Shown here in pieces: positions 11,331 through 54,291 of a DNA stretch of 64,000 nucleotides. How positions within the stretch are numbered: the stretch's first letter is position 1; every line of letters begins with the position of its first letter. The translations under genes and the position numbers were made by a program. The notes beneath the pieces are model-generated. The model did not search any database. It had not been told where the DNA came from and worked only from the letters and a program-made list of their open reading frames with translations. Source of the DNA: a virus; IMG/VR virus record IMGVR_UViG_3300009103_001660, positions 59,212 through 123,211 of that record; one strand, 5' to 3'.

Positions 11331-11554
11331 CAATTTGTTATCATTAGTTTTTTAATTTTCTAACCTCTATATGTCGCCATATAGTTCGGACTATATCTTC
11401 GCTAATAAGCGTCGGGCGCTCGTGGGCGGGTTATTGTCGGGTCTCACCGCCTAGTCTCTACACCTTCCAGAGTATCAGTACCCCCTCTGGCTTGGCTCGG
11501 TATTGTCTCCCAAAAGAGATTTTCACCGAATTCACCCAATATGGCCAATTTTTT
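11331..11554 (-). ncRNA. ORF-less group I intron (IA-like, with P7.1)
   Basis: Core elements present in order: P3 UUGGGUG/CGCCCGA, P4 UUCGGU/ACCGAG, P5, P6/P6a CCAGAG/CUCUGG, P7 GACUA/UAGUCC, J8/7 AAGAUA, P8 CGCU/AGCG, P9 CUAUAUG-GCGA-CAUAUAG, P9.0 and terminal UAACAAAUUG. Confidence 0.9.
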
Positions 11555-11611
11555 ACCTTAACATATTCTACACTATCTTATGTAAAAATCAAATTATTTA
11601 TTAATATTTAA

Positions 11612-49986: not shown

Positions 49987-50247
49987 TTAGTATGGCATCG
50001 AATAGGGGTATATATCTGCGGCGTTTTCAGACATCACATCTTCAACAGTATAATTAACATGATTGTTAAATACTTGCTCGCGTCTCTCTCCATCCTCTGG
50101 TGCGACAAAAGCTAAATCATCTCGACAAGTCTCCCAATCTTCACGGTAAGGATAGTCTGGTAAGTCGCTGGTGGTACACCCGATTTCTGAATCAAGTCGT
50201 TCGTCTAATTCAATAATGAAGTCTTTGAATGTATATGTTGTTTTCAT
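49987..50247 (-). CDS. Small acidic protein
   Basis: ORF downstream of the RNA array, with promoter-like TTGACA upstream. Confidence 0.6.
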   Translation of the reverse strand: MKTTYTFKDFIIELDERLDSEIGCTTSDLPDYPYREDWETCRDDLAFVAPEDGERREQVFNNHVNYTVEDVMSENAADIYPYSMPY

Positions 50248-50289
50248 CTTTTTTAATAGTAACTCGTAACCAAGTTTATGTCAATTAAA

Positions 50290-50945
50290 AAAAGTGTCCG
50301 TTACGCCACTACGGATAAACTGTAAGATGTCTTACCATCCCTGTCCCCGAAGGGCTATGGAGGCGTTGTACTCAGCACCTAGCATCCGTGGCCTGTAATC
50401 CAGCACCACGAAATAAATGTAACAATCAAGTGGTGAGCGTCATACGTCAAGTCAATGGGGTGTCAATTCACCTCTGCACGTTACAAACAACTTTGTTGCC
50501 GCCGTCACAGACACGTCATCGGAGCAGTCACCTACCGACATTCTTTTTCTGACTGTTACAAAATTAATGGGTAGTAGGATTGCTGCATTACCTACAAGAC
50601 CAGTGCACAATACAGTTCAAGTTTACCGATCTACTAACACTACGCAAGTCATACGATTGCACTCTCTCACGTAGCCCTATGCCTTTCCCCTTATGATGGA
50701 GGGATATTCAGCCATACCCTTTGTCCAACCGTCGTCGGACAAAATTGTTTAAAAAGAGCGGGTGAAATCCTTCGTGTTTCACGAATAGAATTGCTAGACT
50801 GTTATATGCATCTGTGCGACGCTAACACCGCTCTAATTTGTTGTTCCCCTACTTTGTCACGCTGTCTCGCTCATGGCCTGTAACCCAGCACCATCTCATT
50901 CCGCTCAAGCGTAGTGTTTTCAGAGAACTAAATTGTCTCAAAGAA
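50290..50945 (-). ncRNA. Putative multi-domain structured non-coding RNA array
   Basis: No minus-strand ORF in the track; nested closing stems with G-U pairs on minus strand; UUCG tetraloop; repeated hairpin; promoter TTGAAC-N17-TAATAT upstream; terminator downstream. Confidence 0.75.
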
Positions 50946-51053
50946 CTGTTTATATATTACAGCATTACCTTGTGCTGTTCAAGTCTTTTTTTTAAAAAAG
51001 TGCCCGTGGAGGGTAAAACAACCAAAACCCCGCCACGGGCTGTGTCAAGGAAA

Positions 51054-51299
51054 CTAACTCGCGCCCACTACACCCACTTGTGGGAGTGTAAATTGCATCC
51101 GTTTGTTGTCCCCCAAATAGGAAGTACATTCCTCGTTACTCGCTAGACGCAAATCTTTTGTTTGTACGTCCCGTGTGTTTTCTTTGTGGTGTTTAGTCCA
51201 CACTCGACGAGTGTTGACTGTCCCTAATACTCGCTCGACTCGTTGCCGTTGGCTGTTGAAATAAAGCGAACCGTTTTTGATTTTGTTTGTGTTCGTCAT
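51054..51299 (-). CDS. Small hypothetical protein
   Basis: ORF with upstream promoter-like TTGTGT...TATAT. Confidence 0.6.
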   Translation of the reverse strand: MTNTNKIKNGSLYFNSQRQRVERVLGTVNTRRVWTKHHKENTRDVQTKDLRLASNEECTSYLGDNKRMQFTLPQVGVVGAS

Positions 51300-53609: not shown

Positions 53610-53945
53610 ATCGTTTTTAGTAGTTCGTTGTTATCTCTTAACTGTTCTTAGTATCTCATACTACCCTTTTCTAAACAAGAAAAAACCTGGTGCACATGAA
53701 AGTTTTTTTAGTTCTTTTAGTGTTGACACTTCGAGGGATGTCGGCGGGGGAGTCAAGCATAAAGTGTTGAAAAACAAGGCTCAAATGAAGTTTCTTAAAA
53801 TCAATGAATTTCACATCGGAGAAAACTAGGGTAAACAAGAAATAATTTGAACAGTCAGCCCACAAAAACAAGGCTATGATGAAAAACAATTAAGCTAATT
53901 AAAGCCAATCAATTAGGGTAATTAGACGATCAATAAAGACATATT

Positions 53946-54030
53946 GTGAGCAGCAAAAATCTTTGTCGATCATTCGTGAGCGGCAAAATATTTTGACAAT
54001 CAAAAATCTTAATTAGTGAGCGACAACATC
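53946..54030 (+). repeat. Three GTGAGCRRCAA direct repeats in a long AT-rich intergenic region
   Basis: At 53946, 53976 and 54016. Confidence 0.65.
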
Positions 54031-54291
54031 GGGTAATCTAATTCGACCCATATTTTATTCGCTGACTTTATTCAAGCCCTCTTTATTTAACAGATAACCT
54101 CTTTGAAGTTAGTCTTATTTTGGTCGATATTGTTCTCAATCCTTATTTATATTTTACACTGATATCTTCAATATTTCAACTAGTTTTTATTTAAGCCAAA
54201 TATTTGAAGCATCCCAATTACCATACCAAGTGTAACCACAAGGCCCATGTATATTAAGGCCAATGAAATAATGTATGCCATTTCAAAAAAT

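Follow-up and report, generated by a model that had tools for sequence, protein, structure and literature searches.

A manA RNA within a putative boxA-led array of small structured RNAs in a large uncultured marine phage

manA RNA was described in 2010 by Weinberg et al. as a riboswitch candidate of marine sequences and cyanophages, found mostly in 5′ UTRs (PMC2864571). Its usual context is the 5′ UTR of mannose/fructose, nucleotide, chaperone or photosynthesis genes, a setting that is typical rather than defining (PMC2864571). The motif has stood as an orphan riboswitch candidate for sixteen years; a 2026 preprint now reports RNA-only cages in the test tube, with members of the family (Rfam RF01745) forming decamers and a pentamer-based, 60-mer icosahedral cage via kissing loops (preprint 10.64898/2026.07.01.735769). 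The cyanophage S-CREM1 carries manA in the order wcaG, tRNA-Met, tRNA-Leu, manA, tRNA-Asn, abiF, tRNA-Gly (PMC9964418). GOLLD, ROOL and other ornate phage-associated RNAs exist as well, and some form RNA-only multimers (PMC12286853).

A second described system that bears on the locus is boxA. The γ-proteobacterial boxA consensus is GYTCTTTAANA, with C4 and T6 essential (PMC5725501), and the NusB-binding boxA element of Bacillus subtilis is AUGAUCUUUGAAA (PMC13753749). Besides rRNA operons, boxA occurs before suhB and before CRISPR arrays (PMC5725501, PMC13753749), the latter being another long untranslated transcript (PMC13753749).

The locus and its manA RNA

We analysed 64 kb of the virus record IMGVR_UViG_3300009103_001660; "the window" below means this whole stretch of DNA. 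Its genes lie almost all on the minus strand and are those of a large phage, with a T4-type terminase N-domain, GP88, DUF932, a SleB-type cell-wall hydrolase, a clamp loader and an ATP-dependent ligase. The best matches of the terminase, to Bacillus phages, Staphylococcus phages and a Microcystis phage, are only about 24% identical; hence, by its terminase, the phage is not a T4-like cyanophage. A blastn search of INPHARED phages with a 901-nt region covering the locus gave no match. Elsewhere in the window, at 11367-11594 (minus strand), a permissive scan reports a group I intron (RF00028, 68.3 bits), which is absent from the whole-window list at gathering thresholds.

On the minus strand, positions 50288-50982 run from a promoter to a U tract and consist of separately folding RNA domains without a credible ORF; the minus-strand ORFs in the roughly 660 nt past the promoter are of 25, 30 and 52 aa only, and the 52-aa ORF begins inside manA. 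The initial annotation had proposed just such an array of discrete domains between a promoter and a terminator, and all of the elements that it listed are present in the sequence. Folding energy discriminates little at this locus: the MFE z-score of the whole stretch is -1.53 and that of its 5′ part is +0.81, which is not significant. Thermodynamics alone is thus weak, and the case above chance is comparative, consisting of covariation in manA and in a 3′ domain that we term module X, and of complementary helices in an 80-nt unit that we term module Z.

The centre of the array, at 50564-50742 (minus strand), matches manA RNA (RF01745) over the full model (positions 1-192 of 192) with 67.1 bits against a gathering threshold of 55.2 (E = 6.6e-15). 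It is the sole Rfam family above threshold in the array by cmscan, and relaxing the search of 50200-51100 to E ≤ 10 added only two chance-level matches. A pattern search derived from manA yielded 10 distinct true manA loci. Among 11 related copies, 24 of the 52 predicted pairs show compensatory changes on both sides, which makes the call solid: we conclude that the central 179 nt are a manA RNA. The RNA had been annotated as undescribed, which for this part is not the case. A hairpin at 50720-50743 and a unit of about 150 nt closed by GGGUA/UACCC had been taken for separate domains; both are real, but together they make up one manA RNA, and the GGGUA/UACCC helix is the outer helix of RF01745. 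A match to a known Rfam family, which had been named as an outcome that would refute the annotation, is thus obtained for this part. In line with the annotation, ARAGORN found no tRNA or tmRNA in the array. The further suggestion of a GOLLD- or ROOL-like large RNA found no support, since neither these nor other catalogued large RNAs have an Rfam match in the array, even at E ≤ 10, and the modules are each small.

The manA copy of the window is not part of a 5′ UTR: it comes with a promoter, a boxA-like element and a U tract of its own and no ORF inside, and the same is true in relatives. In three related contigs (L052, L048 and L206) manA directly follows boxA, and in S-CREM1 (OP535465) it sits flush between tRNA-Leu and tRNA-Asn. 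We infer that manA here is a free-standing RNA rather than a switch for a neighbouring gene. Because tRNAs bracket it flush, the S-CREM1 copy is presumably cut out by tRNA processing. The S-CREM1 array (L045, 1246-2144) lies on a single strand behind a consensus promoter, with wcaG, manA and an "abiF" motif interleaved with five tRNAs and no spacer at the manA-tRNA junctions.

Companion modules and their order

Relatives were collected by a GP88 search, which gave 39 IMG/VR loci, and by a metagenome scan seeded with a hairpin, H, described below, which gave 92 stretches, many of them marine and many of them true arrays. The strongest comparative evidence outside manA concerns module X, a conserved pseudoknot-type domain at 50288-50383 (minus strand) defined by a hand-derived structure and a covariance model, R1. 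Its helix P1 pairs UAGGUG with CACUU in the window, and UAGGUG with CAC(C/U)UA across homologues; P2 is a hairpin that varies among copies and is the cUUCGg hairpin in the window; P3 has the invariant loop GGUAAGAC on top; P4 is a terminal hairpin, UCCGU/ACGGA, whose GUGGCG loop is able to pair with a conserved ACGCC; and P5 is CUG/CAG. In the hand-derived structure of seven sequences, 95.6% of cells are paired and 14 of 30 pairs are compensatory, whereas slid controls give 0-3; in the 16 full-length copies under model R1, where the window copy scores 90.1 bits, the figures are 96.2% and 17 of 26 pairs, with the structure derived from the same sequences as were scored. Throughout, the loops GGUAAGAC and GUGGCG are invariant while the stems vary. 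Module X has no Rfam match, and model R1 detected no copy in the IMG/VR loci. Covariation among homologues, which had been put forward as a check, is thus found in both manA and module X.

Two pairings were rejected on the way to this structure. The first, AGGUG/CGCCU, which is also that of the MFE fold, leaves G-to-A variants uncompensated, the true partner being CAC(C/U)UA at the 3′ end. The second, a GUAAGA/UCUUAC hairpin that had been annotated as a domain, is spelled out in the sequence, but the 16 homologues rule it out as a conserved pairing, since GGUAAGAC is an invariant loop under a different, covarying stem. The annotated cUUCGg and terminal hairpins are present, though not as stand-alone elements: they are helices P2 and P4 of module X. 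In some contigs (L003, L042, L129, L131, L133, L158, L161, L173 and L206) a different module family, Y, replaces X after H; it begins GACGCGCCUCAA(A/C)CGGA...GUAAGUAUUCC, and a CGCCUC element is common to X and Y.

Module Z occupies 50755-50834 (minus strand) and forms a three-way junction in which AGAGCGG (50834-50828) pairs with CCGCUCU (50761-50755), as annotated for this unit (MFE z = -3.75). Homologues were found in four contigs (L132, L133, L150 and L173), and Z is always directly upstream of manA. The closing helices differ in sequence, and all of them pair (AGAGCGG/CCGCUCU, GGGAAG/CUUCCC, GGAGUAG/CUACUUC); the architecture is the same in four independent MFE folds, and a 20-nt single strand, GUCUAGCAAUUCUAUUCGUG, is invariant while the stems vary. 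Support for Z comes from 4 sequences, the 5′ strand of which MAFFT misaligned. A search of the window for a target of the invariant strand found only its own complement.

The 143-nt unit, module W (50418-50560, minus strand), is an optional element in the linker between manA and the second copy of H. Its 12-bp closing helix with two G-U pairs is present as annotated, and its internal fold is unexceptional (z = -0.62). More than 12 contigs lack W at the equivalent junction, among them L042, whose sequence on either side is 100% identical to that of the window. One diverged homologue, in L206, occupies the equivalent site, and all three of its closing-helix substitutions keep the minus-strand pairing, so that support for W comes from 2 sequences. 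We had considered W a recent mobile insertion, in view of its 12-bp terminal inverted repeat and a possible TTT duplication; this was downgraded on account of the diverged L206 homologue with its pair-preserving changes. Exact pattern scans of IMG/VR derived from the 80-nt and 143-nt units gave no match, and homologues of both emerged only from the H-seeded metagenome scan.

At the 5′ end, leader module L (50843-50928, minus strand) has an outer helix, GUUCUCU/GGGGAAC, around an invariant core of CUACGCUUGAGC, hairpin H1 (50875-50892) and GAGACAGCGUGA. L has homologues in L001 and in about 17 metagenome contigs, among which the outer helix, read by eye, varies yet stays complementary. RNAalifold detected 0 compensatory pairs because the core is sequence-invariant; beyond the outer helix, the structure of L is therefore putative. 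The hairpin within the core recurs as H2 at 50386-50410 (minus strand; MFE z = -4.9), a bulged hairpin GGUGCUGG(A/G)UUACAGGCC with a 5-nt loop. Two exact copies in the window compare with 0 expected, and marine metagenome contigs carry dozens, set in four contexts that recur. Since H is sequence-invariant and recurs in several contexts, it points to a sequence-specific partner. In seven contigs (L119, L127, L143, L147, L149, L179 and L182) the invariant H comes after GUUCACCGGAGAAUAAUGAGC, with a U run and a TTGACA promoter behind it, such that it would act there as an intrinsic terminator stem.

These data bear on a reading in which, apart from manA, the region is a DNA-level recombination or regulatory mosaic, similar to T4-type promoter/stem-loop cassette junctions, and its remaining hairpins do nothing as RNA. 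In its favour, the early region is a pronounced mosaic whose breakpoints fall at module edges, and H recurs at junctions and can serve as a terminator stem. However, in X, Z and W both the compensatory changes and the G-U pairs are specific to one strand, which agrees with the annotated choice of the minus strand as the folding RNA, and the conservation of the two X loops and the Z single strand beside variable stems is a signature of RNA-level selection. We therefore regard a DNA mosaic as very improbable.

The order of modules in the window is L (with H), Z, manA, W, H, X. About 40 related contigs carry arrays of the same modules in varying combinations, drawn from boxA, L/H, a T-arm-bearing module, a small module, Z, manA, W, H, and X or Y; the window array is the longest in the sample tallied. 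W occurs in 2 of about 25 arrays and Z in 5, and H/X and H/Y are interchangeable. Such shuffling speaks for independent units and against one cooperative fold, and hence for the polycistronic array that had been offered as one option in the initial annotation. A single large, unprocessed multi-domain RNA, acting as one molecule in the manner of GOLLD, ROOL or OLE, would be consistent with one promoter and one terminator, with the lack of internal promoters and terminators in our scans, and with the existence of ornate phage-borne RNAs that form multimers (PMC12286853). We consider it unlikely: module combinations and orders vary widely among related contigs, each module has its own closing helix, the comparative data contain no long-range helix spanning modules, and no large RNA in Rfam matches.

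The modules are joined by AU-rich linkers, (A)ACAAUUU. At the DNA level, each island has ACAATTT 2-3 times, at module boundaries and on the sense strand only, against 17 occurrences in 128 kb of window strands. The linkers are probably endonuclease sites at which the modules are set free as separate small RNAs. At the equivalent place, relatives carry tRNAs or the T-arm-bearing module. The latter, of about 130-150 nt, lies before manA in L001 (7505-7645), L046, L050, L059, L131, L148, L149 and L174; it starts GGGUGAAAUUGGUG and finishes with a perfect T-arm, GGUUCGAAUCC, and CACC, so as to resemble a tRNA-like end on a large non-tRNA body, and it was not called by Rfam or ARAGORN in the loci scanned. 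An ORF-poor intergenic region of the window, at 53610-54070 (minus strand), contains the repeated motifs GCCGCUCACGAAUGAUCGACAAA / UUGUCGCUCA. Motifs of this type, sometimes inverted, are also found next to the arrays of relatives (L003, 2147-2328; L001, 7117-7291; L014, 3300-3560), and may serve the early region as operator or iteron sites.

Promoter, boxA-like leader and neighbouring genes

Upstream, a strong intrinsic terminator at 51040-50994 (minus strand; GCCCGUGG...CCACGGGC followed by a U run), whose inner hairpin was picked up by the terminator scan, separates the array from the preceding 81-aa gene. The annotated promoter TTGAAC-17 nt-TAATAT, of sigma-70 type, is present at 50954-50982 (minus strand; -35 at 50982-50977, -10 at 50959-50954). 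With 8 of 12 consensus matches it falls slightly below the cut-off of the promoter scan, and relatives have near-consensus TTGACA-N17-TATATT at the equivalent position. Consensus promoters in this place head homologous arrays in L001, L002, L011, L003, L008, L132, L133, L150 and L206.

Six nucleotides past the -10 box begins a boxA-like leader, AGUUCUUUGAGACAAUUUA (50929-50947, minus strand). It is the sole match to GHTCTTTRANA on either strand of the 64-kb window; as one match per window is expected by chance, the argument for boxA rests on position and conservation. The element heads arrays in more than 30 contigs, and most arrays that reach upstream begin with it, in the same form or as CGAUCUUUGAGACAAUUUA, UGAUCUUUGAAACAAUUUA, CGUUCUUUGAAAA or AGUUCUUUAAUAGA; in some relatives a small 5′ hairpin lies ahead of it. 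Compared with the γ-proteobacterial consensus GYTCTTTAANA, GUUCUUUGAGA matches at 10 of 11 positions, C4 and T6 among them. The window leader has UCUUU and CAAUUUA in common with that of E. coli rrnB, UGCUCUUUAACAAUUUA, and the core G-N-UCUUUGA-N-A in common with the B. subtilis element. A search for the rrn leader of the host, with the 18-nt extended boxA GWTCTTTGARACAATTTA against 185,579 species genomes, gave 55 scattered matches, approximately the number expected by chance, and none upstream of 16S. Two copies of the boxA pattern in L071 were set aside as an unrelated intergenic repeat. Since the leader resembles boxA and sits at the head of the array after the promoter, we infer that the array is transcribed under Nus-factor antitermination.

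At the other end, the 3′ strand of P1 runs into a U7 tract (50287-50293, minus strand), which is likely a terminator. Its stem is short, of 5 bp, with CAC before the U run, and it was missed by the terminator scan, such that read-through into the next genes is possible. The next gene, of 86 aa with its ATG at 50247, has its own promoter, TTGACA-N17-TACTAT (50256-50284, minus strand), identified by sequence and promoter scan. With 8 nt from the -10 box to the ATG and no Shine-Dalgarno sequence, its mRNA is probably leaderless. A similar arrangement is seen in L001 (7880-7930), where, as in the window at 50247-50284 (minus strand), early genes begin 8 nt past the -10 box without a Shine-Dalgarno sequence, and the mRNA is again probably leaderless.

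The arrangement of these signals allows an assessment of a cis-regulatory leader, in which manA and the other domains would form a long 5′ UTR, and conditional termination at U7 would control early genes. The published prevalence of manA in 5′ UTRs (PMC2864571) is in keeping with such a leader, the weak terminator of the window makes regulated read-through conceivable, and manA in L057 follows an ORF without a promoter of its own. Against this, read-through RNA would offer no ribosome-binding site to the next gene, which has its own promoter. In most relatives a strong terminator ends the array, and the genes that follow are not conserved. In the window, 270 nt with two or three unrelated modules intervene between manA and the U tract, and the next ORF lies beyond W, H, X and a separate promoter. 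The placement of manA directly after boxA in three contigs and between tRNAs in S-CREM1 argues likewise, and the reading comes with no known ligand or expression platform. We judge a cis-regulatory leader to be decidedly improbable.

The proposed RNA operon and described systems

We consider it likely that the large, uncultured marine phage uses 50288-50982 (minus strand) as an early RNA operon that is not translated and is transcribed with rRNA-style antitermination, rather than as a gene switch. Its transcription, ends and processing are read from sequence features, which suggest the following scheme. The sigma-70-type promoter would fire, and the first bases of the transcript would form the boxA-like element. 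In the manner of boxA in rRNA operons and CRISPR arrays, this element would load NusB/S10 and other Nus factors onto RNA polymerase, and the resulting complex may shield a long, ribosome-free structured transcript from Rho and aid its folding. L (with H), Z, manA, W, H and X would fold independently; the transcript would end at the closing helix of X and U7; and endonuclease cuts at the (A)ACAAUUU linkers may free the modules as small RNAs.

manA is already catalogued, and its companions are in no catalogue (Rfam). X, Z, L/H and W may be four new structured RNA families of marine phages; as new motifs for RNA family databases, X is the strongest, with Z, H and W less supported. A bolder proposal, which we offer as a long shot, is that the operon is a co-transcribed kit in which manA provides a cage subunit early in infection, L/H, Z, W and X dock to the cage, are enclosed in it or regulate its assembly, and H is a shared address tag or a site for a phage protein. 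To judge by this locus and its approximately 40 relatives, manA stands as an independent gene in one lineage of marine phages. It appears to come with a small repertoire of uncatalogued, conserved folded RNAs, in a dedicated operon with rRNA-style signals, and thus offers a natural context for asking what the manA cage is for. The locus also adds a further case in which phages appear to borrow the boxA/Nus machinery of the host for non-coding RNA.

Within the manA family, the window copy is a regular member in that it passes the curated threshold over the full model, has helices with covariation, and is phage-borne and marine, as most members are. It differs in lying midway in a dedicated untranslated operon, with promoter, boxA, terminator and uncatalogued flanking modules, and in belonging to a phage that its terminase sets apart from T4-like cyanophages. 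Cages have been seen in vitro for RF01745 members. GOLLD and ROOL are, like the window array, phage-encoded, non-coding and near tRNA-type genes, and some of these RNAs form RNA-only multimers (PMC12286853); the array has no sequence or structure match to them, and consists of several independent modules of 25-180 nt rather than one fold of 400-800 nt.

Phage arrays of the S-CREM1 type similarly combine several small structured RNAs on one strand, manA among them. The T4 tRNA region, with its stable RNAs C and D, is a further example of a phage tRNA/ncRNA array. Unlike the S-CREM1 array, that of the window has no tRNA, and ACAAUUU linkers separate its modules; hence, release could not rely on RNase P or RNase Z.

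The λ-type nut site comprises boxA and a boxB hairpin bound by protein N. Similarly, the boxA of the window has an invariant, short hairpin with a 5-nt loop downstream, namely H, which recurs later in the transcript. However, H lies about 45 nt from boxA within a larger fold and doubles as a terminator stem in other contigs, and no N-like protein was identified. A further comparison is with the boxA/Nus system of rRNA leaders. The window element heads phage small-RNA modules rather than rRNA, and its position 8 is not A but G, which B. subtilis also has. Some relatives of the window array have a small hairpin ahead of boxA, again in the way reported for B. subtilis. As in rRNA leaders, G-Y-UCUUU-R-A-N-A follows closely on a strong promoter and opens a long, untranslated, structured transcript, and the CAAUUUA extension of the window element matches that of E. 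coli rrnB.
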